Translations under genes and position numbers: made by a program
Assembly (NCBI GenBank): GCA_037441475.1
Contig: JBBISB010000002.1
Coordinates: 60,001 to 92,000, forward strand
Length of the DNA: 32,000 nt
From: Candidatus Iainarchaeum sp.
GTDB lineage: Archaea; Iainarchaeota; Iainarchaeia; Iainarchaeales; CSSED10-239
Direction of reading: 5' to 3'
In this document: in pieces, positions 1-31,065 of the stretch
How positions within the stretch are numbered: the first letter of the stretch is position 1
Layout of the letters: the number at the start of each line of letters is the position of its first letter
The notes under the pieces: model-generated
What the model saw: only the letters and a program-made list of their open reading frames with translations
What the model was told of the DNA's origin: nothing
Database searches by the model: none

Positions 1-1615
<1,615 letters not shown>

Positions 1616-1820
1616 AAATTTAAGAATCATTTTTATTAACCAAATAAACTTGCTTTTTGTTATTATTAGGCATTATTTCCTACTTCTTTCATTCCGTTAA
1701 ATTTAGAAAGTATTAAACGGTCAAACTCACTTGGAAAAAACTCCTAGTGGGTAATATAATCTTTAGAAGAGGTAAGTTTTTAAAGGAATCGTTTTCTTCC
1801 TTAGAGATTCTTAGAAATTG

Positions 1821-3357: not shown

Positions 3358-4557
3358 ATGCTTATAGGTATTGTAGGAAAACCCAACGTTGGAAAAACAA
3401 CTTTTTTTAGAGCACTAACATTAATGGATGCTGAATCAGCTAACTATCCGTTTACAACCATTGAACCTAACAAAGGAGTTGGGTTTGTAAGAAACAACTG
3501 TATTGATGTTTTTTTTAATACTCAATGCAACCCAAGAACAGGGTACTGTAAGAAACATATTAGATATCTTCCAGTAGATGTTATTGATGTTGCAGGTTTA
3601 GTTCCAGGAGCTTCTGAAGGAAGAGGACTTGGAAATAAGTTTTTAACAGATTTAAATCAAGCAGATGCTTTGGTGCAGGTAATAGATGCTTCTGGATCAA
3701 CTGATGAAGAAGGAAAGACAGTTAAGGCAGGAACATATAACCCCTCCCTTGAGATTAAGTTTTTAGTTGAGGAAGTTGAAAAATGGTTGTTTGATATTTT
3801 TAAAAGAAACTTTATAAAGATTGGAACTGTGCAAAGAGTACAGAAGCTTAAGACATTAAGAGTTTTAGAGGAATACCTACATGCAACATTAGGTTCAAAG
3901 GAAGAAGAAATCTTTCAAGCACTTAAGAAATGTAGTTTAGTTGAAAAGAACATTGCTGATTGGACTGATGAGGAACTTCTTTTCTTTACAAAAGAGATTA
4001 GAAGACTTTCAAAACCAATAATTATTGCTGCAAATAAAATTGATCTTCCATTTGCAAAAGAAAATATTGAAAGAATGAAAGAAGAGTTTCCTGAACTTAC
4101 AATCATACCATGCTCTGCTGAATCAGAGTTTGCTTTAAAGGCAGCTGATAAAGCAAAGGTTATTAAGTATCTTCCTGGAGACTCAACCTTTAAGATATTG
4201 AAAGAAGACTTATCTGATAAACAAAAGCAAGCACTTGATTTTATTAAAAATAATATTTTAGATAAATATCAATCAACTGGGGTTCAGAAGATTTTAGATG
4301 TTGCTGTTTTTGATGTTTTAAAGTATATTGCTATTTACCCTGGAGGAACTAAGGGGTTAGGAGATAAAGAAGGAAACATCTTGCCTGATTGTTTCTTAAT
4401 GCCGCCTGGTTCAAAAGCCATTGATTTTGCTTTTAAATTACATACAGACTTTGGAAAAAACTTTATTAAAGCAATTGATGTTAAGACAAAGATGCTTCTT
4501 GGTAAAGATCATGCCCTTAAGAATGGAGACTGTATAGAGATTGTTTCTGGGAAATGA
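3358..4557 (+). CDS. YchF/OLA1-like Obg-family GTPase/ATPase with a C-terminal TGS-like domain
   Basis: G1 motif GKPNVGKTT, G3 motif DVAGL, G4 motif NKID, and a C-terminal ...FAFKLHTDFGKNFIKA...LKNGDCIEIV segment typical of TGS. The 399-aa size matches archaeal YchF-like proteins. Confidence 0.85.
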   Translation: MLIGIVGKPNVGKTTFFRALTLMDAESANYPFTTIEPNKGVGFVRNNCIDVFFNTQCNPRTGYCKKHIRYLPVDVIDVAGLVPGASEGRGLGNKFLTDLNQADALVQVIDASGSTDEEGKTVKAGTYNPSLEIKFLVEEVEKWLFDIFKRNFIKIGTVQRVQKLKTLRVLEEYLHATLGSKEEEIFQALKKCSLVEKNIADWTDEELLFFTKEIRRLSKPIIIAANKIDLPFAKENIERMKEEFPELTIIPCSAESEFALKAADKAKVIKYLPGDSTFKILKEDLSDKQKQALDFIKNNILDKYQSTGVQKILDVAVFDVLKYIAIYPGGTKGLGDKEGNILPDCFLMPPGSKAIDFAFKLHTDFGKNFIKAIDVKTKMLLGKDHALKNGDCIEIVSGK

Positions 4558-4564
4558 AAGGATT

Positions 4565-5068
4565 ATGAAAATAAAACTTTTAACAAAAATTACTTTAAAA
4601 GAAGATAAAGAACTTGAAATGCTTTATAAAAAGTATTTTAAAAAAGAAAAAGAAGAAACTAATCTAGATTTTAAAAAGATTAACTTGATTCTTAAAAAGT
4701 TTCCTAAGTCAGAAGCAATAGTTATTGATAAAAAAACTATTATTGGTGAAGTTACAACCATACCTACAAATAAAAAAATAATGAAAGAATTTTTAGAAAG
4801 TAAGATAACAGAACAAGAAATGATTGATAAATCTCTTGACAAAATATCACTTAAAAATTTTAATTCTCTTTACCTTTGCTACTTTATACTTGAAAAGAAA
4901 TATAGGGGAAAAGAAATAACTTCAAAAGCAATTGAGAAAATTATAGATTATTATATAAAAATAAATCCAAAAATTACTTTATTTGTTTGGCCTTTTTCAA
5001 AAGCAGGAGAAAAAGTGGCAATTAAAATATCAGAAAAATTTTATCTACCACTTATTATTAAAAAATAA
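4565..5068 (+). CDS. Small basic protein, possibly a GNAT-type acetyltransferase
   Basis: ORF in the 4541 frame. The ATG at 4565 avoids overlap with the upstream gene's stop. The segment FILEKKYRGKEITSKAIEKII weakly resembles GNAT motif A. The family call is tentative. Confidence 0.4.
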   Translation: MKIKLLTKITLKEDKELEMLYKKYFKKEKEETNLDFKKINLILKKFPKSEAIVIDKKTIIGEVTTIPTNKKIMKEFLESKITEQEMIDKSLDKISLKNFNSLYLCYFILEKKYRGKEITSKAIEKIIDYYIKINPKITLFVWPFSKAGEKVAIKISEKFYLPLIIKK

Positions 5069-5070
5069 AA

Positions 5071-5766
5071 CTATTTTTTAGATTTTTTCTTAGCAGCGTT
5101 CTTTATATCCAACTGCTTATCAGCTTCAGAAACATTTAATTCTTTTTTAACAACAATTCTTCCAGTCTTTATAAAGTCCTTTATACTAGCAATACCGTAT
5201 CTTGTTATTATAAAAGAACCAGTGAAGAAAACACCGGCAAGCAAAGGATTAAAGCCTAGAAGTAAAGAGGCTACCCCACTTGAAGTTGCAACCTGGATAT
5301 CTGGTTTTGAAAATAATTCACCTAATTTTTCAAAGAAACGTATGTTCTTTCCTGTCTCAGGATTAATCTCAGCCATTAAATTTCCATTTTGGAAAATTCT
5401 TATCTGTCCATCCTCTTCAGAAGAGATGATTGCCATAACATCTTTTTCTTGAGATATACCTCTTGCTGCAGAATGTCTTGTTCCATGACCAAAAAGTATC
5501 TTTGTTCTTTTTATTTTAGCACCATAACAAACAACCTTACCATCATCATTAACTATTATAGCACCATCCATTTCTGAGAGGTATAAAAGTAAAGTTTGTG
5601 TTTCTTTATCTTTGATATTAAAGTCCTTGCCTTTAAAAAGATCAGGGTAAAGAATATCGTATTTTTTAGAAATATCATTTTTAGTTATTACAAAAAAAGA
5701 ACCTTTCTTTTTTTTTGCCATTTCATTTACTAGTATCATTACTTGAGAAATTGTGTTTTTATTCAT
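5071..5766 (-). CDS. Diadenylate cyclase (DAC/DisA_N) domain protein with a C-terminal hydrophobic segment
   Basis: DGA motif (EMDGAIIVNDDG) and an RHR-region motif written as GTRHSAARGIS. The C-terminal part carries a hydrophobic stretch (VASLLLGFNPLLAGVFFTGSFII) and a Lys-rich tail. Confidence 0.8.
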   Translation of the reverse strand: MNKNTISQVMILVNEMAKKKKGSFFVITKNDISKKYDILYPDLFKGKDFNIKDKETQTLLLYLSEMDGAIIVNDDGKVVCYGAKIKRTKILFGHGTRHSAARGISQEKDVMAIISSEEDGQIRIFQNGNLMAEINPETGKNIRFFEKLGELFSKPDIQVATSSGVASLLLGFNPLLAGVFFTGSFIITRYGIASIKDFIKTGRIVVKKELNVSEADKQLDIKNAAKKKSKK

Positions 5767-5822
5767 ATATATTCACCTTATCTGTCTTATAGATATCTAT
5801 ATAGATGAAACAATATTTAAAG

Positions 5823-7223
5823 CTAATTTTTTAAAATAGACTTAAGTAATAAGGAGAACTTTTTTTTATTTTTTTTAACAAATAAAACCTCTCCATCTTC
5901 TTTCTTAAGAGTTACTTTCTTTGATCTTACAATCTTTATCTTATCTCCGTTCTTTAAGATATGCCCTTTATTAGCTATTATCTTATCATTGACCTCAGCA
6001 TAGTCATAAAATTTAGCAAAATCAGTGTGAAGAATAAAAGCAAAGTCAAGAAGAGTGGATTTTTTTGGAATAACCATCTCTTGGTTTGTTTGGGTGTAGA
6101 CAACTATGTAGTCTATATAGGAGACATCTTTTGGTTTTGTAAGCATATTATTTTCTTTTAAGAAATTTATTAAACGAGAGTCCTTTTCTGAAAATTCAAT
6201 GTTTTTATAGTGGAAATGAGCAGAAACACCAAACTCAGCATTGTTATGCATATCAATGGTTCTTATCTGTATCTCAAAAGGATAACCATTAAGCATTATA
6301 TTAAGATGTATTGACTGATAACCATTTTCCTTAGGATACTTTATAAAATCTCTTATCTTTACATCCTTGTTTTCAATAACCTCAAAGTTATCTTTAATAG
6401 CTTGAAGAGCTTTATAACATTCCTTTCTTGAATTGTAGATAAGTCTTAAAGCATAGATATCAAGAACCTCTAAAAGATGATTCTTTTCTTTCCTTATAAA
6501 GATCTTTTGATAAAGACTGCCTGGGCTTTTGTATCTGTAATTGTAGGTTACTGGTTTATGTCCTTTATTTTTTAAAAAATTAATAACAGTTTCTTTTAAA
6601 GTATTTAATTTTTCTACAGGATATTTTTTAGTTACTTCTTTATAGGTTTTATTAAAACTTTCTTTATACTTTAAAGCCATTAATTTTTCTAAAAACTCCT
6701 CTTTGAAGTTTTGCATACCTAACTGGTAGGCTAAAGGAAAGATAGCTTGTTCAATAACATCTAAAAATCTTGTTTTAAATTTTTCATCTTTAATTTTAGG
6801 AAAATAATCTAAGATAACTAAAGCTTCACCAAAAAGAAGAATAACAGCCTCTATCTTAAAGAAAGATTGAACAATCATTTTTTTTATTTTCTTAGGAGGG
6901 ATATCATAGTTGTGTATTAAATCATAAAAGTTTATAAAATAATAATCTTTAGATATCTTTCTTATAATCTTAGGAAAACCTGCACTCTTAATGTTTATTT
7001 CATATTTATAAGGGTTGTAAAGAACAGCAGTGATTATTATGTTTTCATCATAAACATTTAGTTTTTTTGCAATAGCTAAAGAATACTCTATTAAAGGGAT
7101 GTTTTTGAAAACATACTCAGAAGAATAATTGTTTTTAGAGATAGAGTAGGCTTTCTTAATATTTGAAGTGTACTCTTTTATAAGAGATGAATATTCTTTT
7201 AAAAAACTTTTTTTAATAACCAT
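5823..7223 (-). CDS. Long RelA/SpoT homologue: degenerate HD region, (p)ppGpp synthetase domain and TGS
   Basis: Synthetase core YRYKSPGSLYQKI...DIYALRLIY...FIKYPKENGYQSIHLNIML..PFEIQIRTIDMHNNAEFGVSAHFHYK. C-terminal TGS-like segment STLLDFAFILHTDFAK...LKNGDKIKIV. The N-terminal region aligns to the HD hydrolase region (PLAYQLGM), but the HD dyad position reads LYNP. Confidence 0.85.
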   Translation of the reverse strand: MVIKKSFLKEYSSLIKEYTSNIKKAYSISKNNYSSEYVFKNIPLIEYSLAIAKKLNVYDENIIITAVLYNPYKYEINIKSAGFPKIIRKISKDYYFINFYDLIHNYDIPPKKIKKMIVQSFFKIEAVILLFGEALVILDYFPKIKDEKFKTRFLDVIEQAIFPLAYQLGMQNFKEEFLEKLMALKYKESFNKTYKEVTKKYPVEKLNTLKETVINFLKNKGHKPVTYNYRYKSPGSLYQKIFIRKEKNHLLEVLDIYALRLIYNSRKECYKALQAIKDNFEVIENKDVKIRDFIKYPKENGYQSIHLNIMLNGYPFEIQIRTIDMHNNAEFGVSAHFHYKNIEFSEKDSRLINFLKENNMLTKPKDVSYIDYIVVYTQTNQEMVIPKKSTLLDFAFILHTDFAKFYDYAEVNDKIIANKGHILKNGDKIKIVRSKKVTLKKEDGEVLFVKKNKKKFSLLLKSILKN

Positions 7224-7260
7224 TTAATATCACTGTGTTTTTTTACCTTTCTGTAACGTT

Positions 7261-7300
7261 TTTTGTACTTTCGTATTATTTTTTGTCCTTTGGTATTATT
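7261..7300. repeat. Two tandem 20-bp direct repeats (18/20 identical) in the leuS/RSH intergenic spacer
   Basis: 7261-7280 ttttgtactttcgtattatt and 7281-7300 ttttgtcctttggtattatt. A weaker third copy (11/20) lies at 7241-7260. Confidence 0.8.
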
Positions 7301-7325
7301 TAATCTTCTTGTTTTTTTTATTTTT

Positions 7326-7334
7326 AAAAAAAAA
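7326..7334 (-). terminator. Oligo-T tract immediately after the leuS stop codon
   Basis: Nine consecutive A on the plus strand (T9 on the minus strand) directly follow the TAG stop at 7335-7337. This is an archaeal-style oligo-T terminator. Confidence 0.4.
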
Positions 7335-10202
7335 CTATTCCACTAAGAAACCTATCTTACCAGGAGTTGCACTCTTTGCTTTTTCATTTAAAGACTCTTC
7401 TGCCTTAACTATTAAAACCTCAGTTTCAAAGGTATTAGAGATGAAATCCTTTATTGAGGTTAAAAAAACCATATCCTCCTCTTGAGATTTTATGTTTTCC
7501 TTTAAAAGAGGTTGCTTTATAAGCTTTGTAATGGTTTTAGAAACTTCTTCTTTTTCCTCAGAATACTTAGACATATATTTAGAAATCAGTTGTCCAACAT
7601 TTCTTGAAACATCTAAATCAACTAAAACTTCTTGATAAAATAAATATTTCCAAGATGCAGAAACAATTAAGGTTATTTTATTTATTTTCTCAAGACCTGA
7701 AAGCTTAATAACATTTCTTAAATCTGAAACCATCTTTTCAACATTCTTTTCCTTATCATCAAGAGAAAGATTTATCTTTTCAATATCAACTATAGGGAAG
7801 CTTTGTTTTGCTACAAGAGTATTTTCTAAAACTAAGCTGTTAAGCTCTTCTGCTACATGAGGAGTAAACAAACCCATTGTTAAGATCCATTTTTTAAGTA
7901 AAGAAAAAATTAATTTTTTATTGTTTCCACCTCTTCTTAAATACCATGAAAAGTCATTATGGAAATTAAAATAAACTTCATCAGTTGCAGCCTTAAACTC
8001 TATTTTTTCCATAGCCTCTATAACTGTTCTAAGTCTTAAGTTAAACTTAGATTCAAACCAGCGGTCAAGCTCAGTTTCATTTGCATCTTCCTTAAAATCA
8101 TTTGAAGAAATAATATTTTCTATAAAGGAAAAGATTCTTTCAAGTCTTTGCTTATATGTTTTTAAATCATCTTCCTCAAAGGAGATATCCACAAATGGAC
8201 TTGCTACATTTGCATAGAAAAGTCTAATTGCATCTATTGAGTATTTTTCGGCCTCAGAGCCAATTGAACCTACACCACCCTTTGATTTTGAAATTTTTCC
8301 AGAACTTGAAACAACCCACCAGTTAACAAAGATACCTTGTGGGTAATATTTTTTATCTAAGATACCTACATGGTTCATTAAAAAGGTAGGAAAATGAACT
8401 GTTTGGTGTTCCTTACCGCCTAAGTTAATATCTAAAGGATACCAGTAAGAGACATCTTTTTTAATTTCCTCAACTAAAAGTTTATCTAAAGAAGTTTCTT
8501 TTATAACATTCTCTAAAGAACCTTTGTTTAAGAAAATATAATCAAAGAACGCTTCTGTTAATTGTTCAGTTTTTATTTTACCTTGGTTTACATAAAGAGA
8601 AACAAGGTAATAGATAGGGTAAAGAGTACTATCTGAAATTGGTTCAACTGTGTAAGAGGAATCAAATGGAAGCTTTGTTCCAAGCCAGGTTCCTTGTCTT
8701 GCACATGCTCTATCATCAAACCAGTTTAGAATATTTGAAAGATTCTTTTTAAAAGAATCAGGCAAAATAAGCATGTTCTTTGTATACTCAATTGTTTTTT
8801 CTGTTAAATCCTTGTCTGAATATTTAATAAACCATTGTCCATCTATTCTTTTAATTACAACTGGAGAAGAGCATCTACAAAGAACCTCTTCTGATAAATC
8901 ATAGAAGATGAATGCATTTTTTTCTTCAAGCATCCTTTCTTTTATTTTTTCTTTTGCAATTTCAACTTTCATGCCCTTATATTCATTACAGGTTTCTGTC
9001 ATAACCCCTGTATGGTAACCTTTCTTGTAAACTTCTTTTTTAGCTTCCTCTAATTTTTCTGTATCCTTTTGAGAAGCAATCTTCATTCTCTCACAAATCT
9101 CAACTGCAGGAAAATCTCCAAAATCTTTTGATTTAATTATTGGTATTAACTTAATATTTTTAATAGTCTCATAATCAAGAGAGTATTTATCACACTCTTC
9201 CTTTGATCTTTGCAAGTCATAAAGACCCATCCAGTCAGCAGGCGCATCAGAAGGAACAGAGGTGACTATGCCTGTACCTATCTTAGGGTCACAAAAGGAA
9301 GATGGAAGAATAATTATTTTTCTATCTATAATTGGTGGTTTTACATATTTACCTAAAAGATCCTTACCTTTTATTTTTTCATCAAGAAGAGAAGTATTAT
9401 CTATTTGGTATTTTATTTTTTCATAAAAATCTTTTGATGCAATCCAGGTTTCATTTTCATACTTTATCTTAACATACTCTTCCTCTGCTGAAAGCCAGAT
9501 GTTTGTTTGACCGTAAACAGTCTCTGGTCTTAGGGTTGCAACTAAGATATATTGATTTTCTTTTTCAAAATTAAGTTTAATGATTGTAAACTCTTGTTTT
9601 TCTGCATTTCCACCTTTTGATAAATCCATCTCTGAAGGATCAACTGCAACTGGACCACACTTTACACAAGCTGTTGCAAAGTAAGGCTTTTGTACAAGTA
9701 AGTCTTTTTCTTTTAGTTTCTTAAACTGCCATTCTATAAACTTTTGATAATCAGGGTAGGTTGTAACTGTAAATCTTCTAAAGTCACCTAGAAAGCCATA
9801 GGAGTTATAATCTCTAACATACATTTCAGAAAAGAAATTAACAAAGCCATCTGGAGTGGATATTTTATTTAAGTTATCATTTGTTAAGCCTTTACTTTTG
9901 TAATAATCAACAGTCTCTTTATCATTCTCTTTTACTTTTTGTGCTTTAGAAACAGCTCCGTTTCCTGAAGCATGCCCTCCAGCAGCAAGTAAAACATTAA
10001 AACCATTCATTCTTTTAAACCTACAGATAGCATCAGCATAAGAGTATCCTCTCATATGCCCTACATGATGAAAGCCTGAGACAGTTAAGTAAGCCCATAT
10101 TAAAAAGAACTTTGGTTTAGTTTCATCTCTTGTAGCAGAGCCTATGTTTTCCTCTTGCCATTTATCTTGCCATTTTTTTTCAAAGTCTGTATAGTTGTAC
10201 AT
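7335..10202 (-). CDS. leuS: Leucine--tRNA ligase, archaeal/eukaryal type
   Basis: 955 aa. HIGH motif as SGFHHVGHMRGY, KMSKS motif as GKISKSKGG. The N-terminal FEKKWQDKWQEE and the overall size are typical of archaeal LeuRS. Confidence 0.95.
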   Translation of the reverse strand: MYNYTDFEKKWQDKWQEENIGSATRDETKPKFFLIWAYLTVSGFHHVGHMRGYSYADAICRFKRMNGFNVLLAAGGHASGNGAVSKAQKVKENDKETVDYYKSKGLTNDNLNKISTPDGFVNFFSEMYVRDYNSYGFLGDFRRFTVTTYPDYQKFIEWQFKKLKEKDLLVQKPYFATACVKCGPVAVDPSEMDLSKGGNAEKQEFTIIKLNFEKENQYILVATLRPETVYGQTNIWLSAEEEYVKIKYENETWIASKDFYEKIKYQIDNTSLLDEKIKGKDLLGKYVKPPIIDRKIIILPSSFCDPKIGTGIVTSVPSDAPADWMGLYDLQRSKEECDKYSLDYETIKNIKLIPIIKSKDFGDFPAVEICERMKIASQKDTEKLEEAKKEVYKKGYHTGVMTETCNEYKGMKVEIAKEKIKERMLEEKNAFIFYDLSEEVLCRCSSPVVIKRIDGQWFIKYSDKDLTEKTIEYTKNMLILPDSFKKNLSNILNWFDDRACARQGTWLGTKLPFDSSYTVEPISDSTLYPIYYLVSLYVNQGKIKTEQLTEAFFDYIFLNKGSLENVIKETSLDKLLVEEIKKDVSYWYPLDINLGGKEHQTVHFPTFLMNHVGILDKKYYPQGIFVNWWVVSSSGKISKSKGGVGSIGSEAEKYSIDAIRLFYANVASPFVDISFEEDDLKTYKQRLERIFSFIENIISSNDFKEDANETELDRWFESKFNLRLRTVIEAMEKIEFKAATDEVYFNFHNDFSWYLRRGGNNKKLIFSLLKKWILTMGLFTPHVAEELNSLVLENTLVAKQSFPIVDIEKINLSLDDKEKNVEKMVSDLRNVIKLSGLEKINKITLIVSASWKYLFYQEVLVDLDVSRNVGQLISKYMSKYSEEKEEVSKTITKLIKQPLLKENIKSQEEDMVFLTSIKDFISNTFETEVLIVKAEESLNEKAKSATPGKIGFLVE

Positions 10203-28466: not shown

Positions 28467-29594
28467 TTATATCTTTTTATTATAAAGCTTGTTTAGGTAA
28501 GCAATAATTTTTTTAGATTTATTTGCATCTATTCCTGGAACCTTTGAAAGATCTGCAAAGTTAAGGTTCTTTACATTATTAATTGACTTATGGGTCTTTA
28601 TTAAGCTTTCAATAGACTTTTCATCAATATCGTTTATTTTAGAAAGGATCCTATAACCTCTTGGAAAATCATTTGTTTTTCCGTTTACAAAGTTTGATAT
28701 TTCTAAAATCTCAATTAACTTGTCAGTATCAGCTATTCTTCTTATACCTAGTTGCTTTAATAAAGAGATTTTTTCAAAAGAAGCCTCTCTTGTTATTATA
28801 TTGTTTGAATAATCTCTTAAGATGAAAGATAGTTCCTCATCAATACCGTATGTTACTTCATATAAAGTGTTTGAAATATCTTGACCTTGAGACCCAAGCT
28901 CAACTACCAAGTCATTCACTTGTTTTTCATGTTTTATAAAGTAAAGGATGTTTTGAATAACATCTAAAATTTCTATCTTAAGGTTAGGGGTGTTGTTTAT
29001 CTCATAGGAAAGAATATTTCTAAGTTTCTTATCAAGCTTTGTTCTAAAGTCCTTTAGGTTGTTTATAGCATAACTTGCTTTAACCATTAGGATGCTAAAG
29101 TCCTGTAAAACATATTTTTGGTCCTTATAGTAAAGAGAAATAACACTTCTTCTATGGGAGATGGCTATTACTGGAACATTTGATTGTTTTGCTGTTTGTT
29201 CAGCTGACCTATGCCTCATTCCTGTTTCCTTTGAAGAGATTTCTTTGTCTGGCATTAAATGTTTGTTTGCACCTATTATTTTTGTTAAGTCTTTGGAAAG
29301 GACAATGGCACCATCCATTTTTGAGAGTTCAAAGAGCTTTTGAGAGGAGAAAGGGATATCAAGGTCTATTCCTCCTTTAAGGATAGGTTTTAGTTCCTCT
29401 GAGTTGCCTAGGACTATTAGGGCACCTAGGTTACCATGTAAAATCTCATCTAGGCCTTGTCTTAGTTCTGTTCCTGGTGTAACAAGCGGCAGGATCCTTG
29501 TAATATCTATGACTTCATTTTTATATATTTCATTTAAGAGTTTTGAAGAGAAGTCATCTTCTACAAATATTCTTTTTTTTGGTTTTGTAGGCAT
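28467..29594 (-). CDS. disA: DNA integrity scanning protein DisA (diadenylate cyclase with a C-terminal HhH domain)
   Basis: N-terminal DAC domain (GALIVLG, KMDGAIVLS, GMRHRSAEQ), a helical linker and a C-terminal helix-hairpin-helix-like segment DLSKVPGIDANKSKKIIAYL. The 375-aa size is typical of DisA. Confidence 0.88.
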   Translation of the reverse strand: MPTKPKKRIFVEDDFSSKLLNEIYKNEVIDITRILPLVTPGTELRQGLDEILHGNLGALIVLGNSEELKPILKGGIDLDIPFSSQKLFELSKMDGAIVLSKDLTKIIGANKHLMPDKEISSKETGMRHRSAEQTAKQSNVPVIAISHRRSVISLYYKDQKYVLQDFSILMVKASYAINNLKDFRTKLDKKLRNILSYEINNTPNLKIEILDVIQNILYFIKHEKQVNDLVVELGSQGQDISNTLYEVTYGIDEELSFILRDYSNNIITREASFEKISLLKQLGIRRIADTDKLIEILEISNFVNGKTNDFPRGYRILSKINDIDEKSIESLIKTHKSINNVKNLNFADLSKVPGIDANKSKKIIAYLNKLYNKKI

Positions 29595-29826: not shown

Positions 29827-31065
29827 CTAACTTATTTTTTTAAAAAAAACATAAAAGTTTAAAAAAGAAAGAAAAGAAATGTTAGTGTTAAAATATTTCT
29901 TAGACTCATTTAAATTATCTGTAAATAAAAAACCCTCTTTAGGATTATACTTTTCAATAAAGCTTAAATAGGATCTTGAAATGTTTGTTTGTTTAAGAGA
30001 ATTTTTAACCTCTAAAGGATATATAGAAAATCCTTTTTCAATAATGAAATCAACTTCAGCACCATTATTAGTTCTCCAGTATTTTGGTTCAATAGATTTT
30101 TTAATTAATTCAGAGAAAATAAAATTTTCTTTTATAAAACCAATATCACTACCTTCTAGAGAAAAAGTATCTAATATAGCATTTCTTAGGCCTATATCAT
30201 AGAAATATATTTTTTTACTTTTAATTAATTCAGTTCTTTTATTTTTATAAAAAGGATGTATTTCTTTGCAAATATATGTTTTATTTAATAGATTCATTAT
30301 CTTCTTTAAAACAGGATAATCTAAGTTACTTAATGTAGAAAGCTCTTTATAATTTATGATATTTCCTGTTTGTAAAGATAGAGCTTTAATTAAATAATTT
30401 AATTTGAAATCATCTGCTAAGTTTGAAATATTTTGAACATCTCTTAGAGCATATGTATAATATATATCTTTTAATAACTTTATTTTAACATCTTTTTTTT
30501 CCTCTAAAACAACTCTTGGATATCCTCCAAAAAGTAAAAACTCTTCAAAATAAGGTTTTAATAATTTGAAATAAACATCAGCATTATCTGTTGTTTTATA
30601 AAGAATTGAAAGGTTTTTATCCTTTGCTAAAAGAAATTCATAAAAGGAAAAGGAATATAATTCAAAAATATTTACTCTTCCTACAAGGTATTTTAAACTT
30701 TGAATAGATAGATCTATACTTGAAGAACTAGTTATTATTATTTTAACTTTATTTTTGTGTAAATCATATATGTACTTTAATATCTTTCCTGAATCCTTAG
30801 CATAATGAATTTCATCAATAAAAAGTATATCTGTTCCTTGGATGTATAGTTTAATAAATTCATCTGTGTTGTTTACAAAAAGATCTTTAATATTTAGGTT
30901 ATTAAAACTTATTTGAATTATTTTTTTATTTGAAATACCACTTAGTATATGCTCTATCATTGTGGTTTTACCAACTTGTCTTGCACCCATTACTGCTATA
31001 ATCTCAGGAGTTGATAAAAAGTTTAATAATGTAAATTCTAGATCTCTAGGGATATATTGGTCCAT
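29827..31065 (-). CDS. AAA-type ATPase of the COG1373/DUF4143 family
   Basis: Walker A GARQVGKTT and Walker B ILFIDEIH. The ~410-aa length and the C-terminal EVDFIIE motif are typical of this archaeal ATPase family. Confidence 0.8.
   Translation of the reverse strand: MDQYIPRDLEFTLLNFLSTPEIIAVMGARQVGKTTMIEHILSGISNKKIIQISFNNLNIKDLFVNNTDEFIKLYIQGTDILFIDEIHYAKDSGKILKYIYDLHKNKVKIIITSSSSIDLSIQSLKYLVGRVNIFELYSFSFYEFLLAKDKNLSILYKTTDNADVYFKLLKPYFEEFLLFGGYPRVVLEEKKDVKIKLLKDIYYTYALRDVQNISNLADDFKLNYLIKALSLQTGNIINYKELSTLSNLDYPVLKKIMNLLNKTYICKEIHPFYKNKRTELIKSKKIYFYDIGLRNAILDTFSLEGSDIGFIKENFIFSELIKKSIEPKYWRTNNGAEVDFIIEKGFSIYPLEVKNSLKQTNISRSYLSFIEKYNPKEGFLFTDNLNESKKYFNTNISFLSFLNFYVFFKKIS

Follow-up and report, generated by a model that had tools for sequence, protein, structure and literature searches.

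Neighbouring genes for a compact RelA/SpoT homologue and a DAC-domain protein in a Forterrea-type archaeon

Genes at the RSH-DAC locus and their host

A 32,000-nt stretch of DNA from Candidatus Iainarchaeum sp. (assembly GCA_037441475.1, contig JBBISB010000002.1, positions 60,001 to 92,000; hereafter the window) carries a gene for a 466-aa RelA/SpoT homologue (RSH), followed by a gene for a 231-aa protein with a diadenylate cyclase (DAC) domain. An earlier analysis of the DNA letters (hereafter the sequence-only reading) had described the two as a tandem on the same strand with 56 nt in between, and had proposed that they form a co-regulated module for the second messengers (p)ppGpp and cyclic di-AMP (c-di-AMP). 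The open reading frames (ORFs) were found exactly as described. The features of the locus, together with those of related genomes that are referred to below, are listed in Table 1.

The assembly of the window genome comprises 769 kb in two contigs, is 89.5% complete and has a GC content of 28%. Among named records, those closest to it are "Candidatus ainarchaeum sp." and the complete genome of Candidatus Forterrea multitransposorum, each with an RSH that is 76% identical to that of the window. An archaeal large-subunit (LSU) rRNA gene, an archaeal-type leucyl-tRNA synthetase, a YchF-related GTPase and Ca. Forterrea as nearest genome confirmed that the contig is archaeal and not bacterial. The host is a very small DPANN archaeon from groundwater, of the Ca. 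Forterrea type within the Iainarchaeota/Diapherotrites. Relatives screened for RSH numbered 41. In the following, G000 denotes the window genome and G001-G006 six congeners; g1 is the genus of the window, and g4 and g5 are sister genera of the same family.

Table 1. Coordinates of features in the window and, where a locus or genome label precedes the position, in related genomes.
Feature	Position	Strand	Basis or remark
Archaeal LSU (23S) rRNA	1-1623		1232 bits; window starts inside gene
YchF-related GTPase with TGS domain (ychF)	3358-4557	+	NF007171, 516 bits, and synteny; end of conserved locus
orf175, convergent on DAC	4541-5068	+	ORF; no family assigned
DAC-domain gene, 231 aa, predicted c-di-AMP cyclase	5071-5766	-	Pfam DAC, CdaA alignment, AlphaFold2 (AF2)/Foldseek
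Gly/Ser-rich hydrophobic C-terminal module of DAC protein, conserved, aa 158-209	5140-5295	-	Hydropathy, conserved motif, AF2
DAC catalytic domain, aa 13-129	5380-5730	-	Pfam; motifs DGA, GHGTRHSAA, SSEEDG
RSH-DAC spacer, 56 nt	5767-5822	-	Direct reading of sequence
Shine-Dalgarno (SD)-like GGTGA	5773-5777		6 nt before DAC ATG
TATA-like TTTAAATA	5814-5821		Right after RSH stop codon
RSH gene, 466 aa	5823-7223	-	ORF; pseudo-hydrolase, (p)ppGpp-synthetase and TGS domains; no zinc-finger or ACT domain
TGS domain of RSH, aa 373-432	5928-6107	-	Pfam; beta-grasp strands in model
RelA_SpoT synthetase domain, aa 230-341	6201-6536	-	Pfam; intact catalytic set
Pseudo-HD (hydrolase-like) domain, ~aa 20-200	6624-7166	-	Fold superposition; catalytic H, HD, ED replaced by Y, YN, none
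leuS-RSH spacer, 111 nt	7224-7334		From leuS stop to RSH start
20-bp tandem repeat, 2.2 copies	7259-7301		Tandem Repeats Finder, 91% matches; in leuS-RSH spacer
leuS, archaeal-type leucyl-tRNA synthetase	7335-10202	-	Pfam and synteny; upstream same-strand neighbour of RSH
Second DAC protein, DisA-like (DAC, DisA-linker, HhH)	28467-29594	-	Domain matches
AAA_14/DUF4143 ATPase	29827-31065	-	PADLOC PDC-S01, 258 bits
ORF after short DAC gene in g4	L024:7271-7696; L027:1801-2247; L025:6230-6670
Stand-alone HD_4 proteins	G015:C4:7614-7985; G010:C1:68543-68908; G013:C50:4100-4453
KaiC-family ATPase after long RSH	L011:237-977; L014:224-976; L015:3295-4035; L019:3096-3839

A reduced RSH with a predicted synthetase-only activity

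In Pfam scans of the RSH, the synthetase domain scored 101.2 bits against RelA_SpoT (PF04607; cut-off 27) and the TGS domain 33.7 bits (cut-off 22.2), while HD_4 gave no match. Residues of the two active sites were read from phmmer alignments to solved Rel/RelA proteins and from an alignment with 28 archaeal relatives. At the hydrolase positions, H53 of RelSeq (the His of THPL) is replaced by Y and H77-D78 by Y-N in the context LYNP, as the sequence-only reading had observed for the HD dyad; E81-D82 of RelSeq has no equivalent. In contrast to the hydrolase site, the synthetase site is intact with respect to (i) individual residues, i.e., R230, K232, S236, K240, D255, R260, Y302, S304, H306, E317, Q319 and R321; (ii) the motifs RYKSPGSLYQK, LDIYALR (which includes the Mg-binding Asp), PKENGYQSIH, EIQIRT and NNAEFGVSAHFHYK; and (iii) the previously quoted strings GYQSIHLNI and EIQIRTIDMHNNAEFG, both of which were found in the protein. 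All 15 members of a clade of 455-470-aa proteins keep the synthetase motifs, and every column that is invariant or nearly invariant in an alignment of 86 RSH sequences is satisfied by the window protein.

An AlphaFold model built on the latter alignment (pLDDT 91.9, pTM 0.89) matched B. subtilis Rel, ribosome-bound RelA and SpoT over its full length in Foldseek searches, and it superposed on the HD+SYN N-terminal halves of RelSeq and S. aureus Rel with TM scores of 0.75-0.77. When a profile was made from just the first 200 aa, it found no match in the PDB. Despite this silence of the sequence profile, the N-terminal 200 residues of the model keep the hydrolase fold, as shown by its superposition on the N-terminal half of Rel. 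As the chain stops 34 residues past TGS, the zinc-finger/helical and ACT/RRM domains are absent; ACT_4, which is present in RSHs of sister families, was not found by Pfam in the window protein. The designation as a "long RSH" with a TGS domain thus holds for the HD fold, the synthetase and TGS but not for the full length, since everything after TGS is gone. Taken together, the loss of the hydrolase residues, the retention of all synthetase columns and the match of the model to the HD+SYN part of Rel support the proposed RelA-like enzyme with a predicted synthetase activity only.

Neither the RSH nor the DAC protein falls into a named NCBIfam equivalog; the RSH scored 165.5 bits against TIGR00691 (spoT_relA), below the cut-off of 499.2. 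With monofunctional E. coli RelA it shares an N-terminal HD fold devoid of catalytic residues, an intact synthetase and a TGS domain in this order, and ribosome-bound RelA (5iqr) was a Foldseek match of the model (E 9e-21). Yet it lies outside the RelA subfamily (NF008124, 86 bits versus a cut-off of 728), has none of the domains (helical, zinc-finger and ACT/RRM) by which RelA is kept on the ribosome, has K-I-R-D instead of the acidic ExDD before YI, and resides in an archaeal host without a SpoT partner. The best matches in both sequence and fold were bifunctional Rel proteins (B. subtilis Rel, 6yxa, phmmer E 6e-26; RelSeq, 1vj7). Unlike these enzymes of Firmicutes and Actinobacteria, to which identity is 20-23%, the window RSH has a destroyed hydrolase site and lacks the C-terminal regulatory half. 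Long RSH paralogues of sister families in the Iainarchaeales, i.e., in the same order of archaea, share the HD-SYN-TGS core but keep ACT and a recognizable HD_4; they are 24-26% identical to the window RSH, and the two sets of proteins are not united in the tree.

The sequence-only reading had considered long RSHs rare in archaea. This does not apply to the present lineage, where genuine RSH matches were obtained in ~22 of the relatives screened. Most sister families contain full long RSHs (HD_4+SYN+TGS+ACT) of 615-716 aa, often as two paralogues. In a survey of 2021, RelA/SpoT was reported for 69% of Diapherotrites, with a predicted bacterial origin (PMC8407392). According to a review of 2023, (p)ppGpp has never yet been found in an archaeon and is regarded as unimportant there (PMC10249747). 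The window RSH belongs to what appears to be a Forterrea-specific clade of long RSHs cut down to 455-470 aa; among 5.8 billion database proteins, this clade is represented by 14 clusters that group tightly. In a tree of 117 sequences it is distinct and separated from all other RSHs by a very long branch (~2.5 substitutions per site), and its point of attachment was not placed. Because of the long branch, neither descent from the long RSHs of the order nor transfer from a bacterial group of ~480-aa HD-SYN-TGS proteins is demonstrable.

HD_4 was searched for in the window genome, where it gave no match even at E <= 1, and in the six congeners (one of them a single-contig genome), again without a match. 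In these genomes, which lack an HD-type hydrolase, removal of the product would therefore need another route, e.g., a single Nudix enzyme (one Nudix gene is present in the window genome, on contig 1 at 70974-71372) or dilution.

The RSH would most likely transfer pyrophosphate from ATP to GDP/GTP to yield (p)ppGpp, and it may sense uncharged tRNA via TGS. Its hydrolase domain would survive solely as a structural pseudo-domain, the ribosome-anchoring C-terminal domains having been lost. The dN/dS ratio (non-synonymous to synonymous substitution rates) is ~0.16 between the close congeners G003 and G004, and the synthetase site is apparently under purifying selection. Alternatively, the protein might no longer be an alarmone synthetase and persist as a fast-evolving relic that functions as a tRNA- or ribosome-binding regulator, or it might modify another acceptor such as adenine nucleotides or the 3' end of tRNA. 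Some toxic small alarmone synthetases use the tRNA 3' end as acceptor. The very long branch, the missing hydrolase partner and a weak match to the PADLOC candidate PDC-S33 would fit this alternative. We nevertheless regard it as unlikely, given that the 15-member clade keeps the residues that are nearly invariant among the 86 RSHs, including the guanine-stacking Y302, the Mg-binding D255 and the Glu/Gln of EIQIRT. The dN/dS value and the stable housekeeping site between leuS and ychF, which is not a mobile or toxin-antitoxin context, speak against it as well.

Several observations were made on RSH-related proteins elsewhere in the order. Genomes of g4 and g5 encode stand-alone HD_4 proteins of ~190 aa, resembling small alarmone hydrolases, without a synthetase, whereas g1 has the synthetase without HD_4. 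Many sister-family genomes (L011-L023) possess two long RSH paralogues, one of 570-613 aa with a strong HD_4 and one of 615-645 aa whose HD motif is degraded (HN/HE/HH) and which carries an acidic, ExDD-like FDDYI motif; the pattern resembles the division into RelA and SpoT, here within archaea. Directly after the long RSH with the weak HD, on the same strand, lies a gene for a KaiC-family ATPase of ~246 aa in at least four families of the order. Finally, P0107-P0153 form a separate clade of ~470-500-aa HD_4+SYN+TGS proteins without C-terminal domains, one of whose members carries the label Candidatus Pacebacteria. Loss of the part behind TGS has therefore occurred at least twice in small-genome organisms.

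A DAC protein set apart from the named classes

The DAC protein scored 67.8 bits against the Pfam DAC family (PF02457; cut-off 27), and its domain aligns to B. subtilis CdaA with the motifs DGA, GTRHSAA and SEEDG. Over 92 DAC homologues, DGA, GHGTRHSAA and SSEEDG are each at least 90% conserved. As the RHS motif is conserved across the homologues, the replacement of the last Arg of RHR by Ser characterizes the family as a whole. The AF2 model (pLDDT 85) matched CdaA and DacM in Foldseek at a TMt of ~0.7. The C-terminal module contains a conserved NP..A..FTGS.I.T..G motif and reaches a Kyte-Doolittle peak of 1.77, which is borderline for a membrane segment; AF2 draws it as beta strands (pLDDT 60-88), and Foldseek found no match for it in the PDB. 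Both a membrane hairpin and a small beta domain are conceivable.

Scores against five class-specific NCBIfam models were far below the cut-offs (58/430, 47/189, 34/225, 31/225 and 26/201 bits), and the domain architecture departs from that of each of the named classes CdaA, DacZ, DisA, CdaS and CdaM. CdaA/DacA and CdaM have in common with the window protein the DAC fold (TMt ~0.7) and the DGA and SEE(D/T)G motifs. They differ from it in that the window protein has no N-terminal transmembrane helices, an N-terminal position of the domain, RHS instead of RHR, and the conserved C-terminal module of 50 aa; the score against TIGR00159 was 47 bits (cut-off 189). The best NCBIfam match was the archaeal c-di-AMP cyclase DacZ of Haloferax (NF041371, E 9e-16). 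Here, too, the score of 58 bits compares with a cut-off of 430, the DAC domain alone aligns, and the pyruvate-kinase-like N-terminal part of DacZ is absent.

Purifying selection on DAC is indicated by a dN of 0.08 versus a dS of 1.07. The protein probably makes c-di-AMP for ion and osmotic homeostasis. The window genome encodes one RCK_C protein and one DHH protein, which are candidates for a c-di-AMP receptor and a phosphodiesterase, respectively.

Within the order, DAC proteins occur only in the family of the window and in one other family. The short DAC protein was not found in any of the six congeners. It is present in nine of ten g4 genomes and in one of two g5 genomes, both genera being devoid of an RSH synthetase. 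In these genera the gene is found elsewhere, at a conserved site where it diverges from the gene of a Na+/H+ exchanger (Na_H_Exchanger), whose homologue in G000 lies on the other contig than RSH-DAC. In the tree, the window DAC protein forms a separate branch at genus depth. Tree position and an identity ranking against YchF and DisA gave no indication of recent transfer from g4 or g5, and the composition of the gene (GC 30.6%, GC3 0.21) resembles that of the genome and carries no foreign signal. Placement of both proteins in trees, as the sequence-only reading had suggested, thus yielded a position for DAC and a distinct but unplaced clade for the RSH. In g4 a conserved ORF of 141-148 aa comes after the short DAC gene on the same strand; it has neither a Pfam match nor a homologue in G000 and could encode a partner or regulator of the cyclase.

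Neighbourhood in related genomes and relation between the two genes

In relatives, leuS is always the same-strand upstream neighbour of the RSH gene, at a distance of 0-50 nt (L005-L009, L060-L064), which points to a transcription unit of leuS and RSH. G000 alone has a spacer of 111 nt, with a run of nine T after leuS. The two 20-bp tandem repeats that the sequence-only reading had placed in the presumed promoter region are present in this spacer. They were not found in the loci of five congeners, where the spacers measure 0-43 nt (43 nt in G003 and G004, 0-40 nt in the others); the repeat looks like a local duplication rather than a conserved operator. The RSH-DAC spacer contains a TATA-like box and an SD-like element and is compatible with a putative archaeal promoter and ribosome-binding site that serve DAC independently.

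The genus has a conserved locus of the order leuS > RSH > < orf17x < ychF, without DAC. It was seen in G001, G003, G004 and three further metagenome lineages (loci among L005-L009 and L060-L064), and the stop codons of RSH and orf17x are 2-6 nt apart or overlap in these loci. In G005, G006 and G011 the RSH gene is kept with other downstream genes, again without DAC. The adjacency is thus absent from G001, G003-G006, G011 and the lineages P0095, P0096 and P0101, and it occurs in two of ~12 loci of the RSH clade: G000 and L053, a 1576-bp contig of an NCBI metagenome assembly that shows a second RSH-DAC-orf17x-ychF arrangement. Conservation of the tandem in related genomes, once checked, was therefore limited to this single additional instance. 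The DAC protein of L053 is 87% identical to that of the window, whereas its flanks are 51-64% identical to those of the window, and the RSH-DAC spacer of 64 nt is poorly conserved and has its own AAGGAG. As the L053 flanks cluster (support 95/96) with the P0096 lineage, which has no DAC at this locus, the two lineages that carry the DAC cassette are not sisters. Either the cassette is ancient and was followed by several clean losses, or recombination carried it from one lineage to another; dS values close to saturation do not separate these scenarios. Direct and inverted repeats flanking the cassette were AT-rich chance matches only, with no sign of a mobile element.

orf175 is fast-evolving (~51% identity among congeners) and abuts the RSH stop codon in DAC-less relatives. 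Its counterpart is a 38-codon remnant in G004 (L005:2887-3000) and is absent in G001 and the P0101 lineage; in all three of these, the ends of RSH and ychF lie close together.

Since related genomes show that DAC is optional at the RSH site, RSH and DAC are not a fixed unit. We therefore favour, with a probability of roughly 0.7, the interpretation that they are two separate nucleotide-signalling genes which are neighbours by chance and do not form a fixed two-messenger unit. This estimate covers the interpretation as a whole, i.e., the reduced synthetase-only RSH, the lineage-restricted DAC cyclase and the optional cassette. The DAC variant behaves as an optional cassette; it would comprise 750 bp in the convergent RSH/orf175 junction and bring its own promoter-like box and SD element. 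Its position would be due to recombination or to the gain or loss of genes in a compact genome rather than to operon logic, and the conserved genomic partner of the RSH would be leuS and not DAC.

Five points weigh against this interpretation. First, the same insertion site beside RSH recurs in two non-sister lineages, which could reflect selection for adjacency instead of recombination through homologous flanks. Second, read-through from RSH into DAC may occur. Third, the whole DAC family has Ser at the last position of the RHR motif. Fourth, in bacteria a synthetase would be toxic if no hydrolase accompanied it. Fifth, both enzyme activities are predictions from sequence and structural models.

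The co-transcribed, co-regulated module that couples (p)ppGpp and c-di-AMP, as put forward in the sequence-only reading, draws on the common strand and the 56-nt gap, on the recurrence of the arrangement at the same site in L053, and on the cross-talk between Rel and the c-di-AMP receptor DarB that is established in B. subtilis. The Foldseek matches of the RSH model include the corresponding complex, 8acu. We consider such a module improbable. The adjacency is missing in ~10 of the ~12 loci of the same RSH clade; g4 and g5 have DAC without RSH, and most of g1 has RSH without DAC; a promoter-like box and an SD element of its own precede DAC; and the 20-bp repeat is not conserved. A search for CBS domains in G000 found none, and hence a DarB-like coupler of c-di-AMP and Rel is absent. 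An adjacency unique to this genome had been named beforehand as an observation that would refute the module; in substance this is the situation encountered, because the adjacency is limited to this genome and one contig. The claim from which the locus derived its apparent specialness thus fails against the loci of relatives.

A broader proposal is that Forterrea-type DPANN archaea possess a working alarmone system with a synthetase-only RSH lacking the C-terminal domains and with no dedicated hydrolase, coupled transcriptionally in a sub-lineage to a new class of c-di-AMP cyclase. If true, it would provide the first demonstrated case of (p)ppGpp signalling in Archaea, with a direct connection to c-di-AMP; we assign it a low probability. 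That the DAC cassette is part of a minimal-DAC antiviral system and moves between lineages as a defence gene is very improbable: minimal DAC proteins serve in PanDA defence (PMC13640721), the distribution within the genus is patchy and cassette-like, and there is a weak NCBIfam match to DS2_3_antiphage (E 0.005), but a PADLOC scan gave no match for DAC, no effector gene is adjacent, the gene is kept at its fixed chromosomal site beside the Na+/H+ exchanger in g4, and the tree roughly follows genus boundaries.

The frequent occurrence of RelA/SpoT genes in Diapherotrites was known before (PMC8407392). Two things are new: an RSH clade of minimal archaeal genomes that is reduced and without hydrolase, and a lineage-restricted DAC variant, characterized by RHS and the conserved C-terminal module, that NCBIfam scores and architecture set apart from the named classes. 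With its intact synthetase site, dead hydrolase site and carrier genomes without a hydrolase, the well-modelled 466-aa RSH is a compact candidate for in vitro tests.

The DisA-like second DAC protein of the window was also found in five of the six congeners and in g4 and g5. Beside its gene lies that of the AAA_14/DUF4143 ATPase, a strong match to a PADLOC candidate defence family (Table 1).

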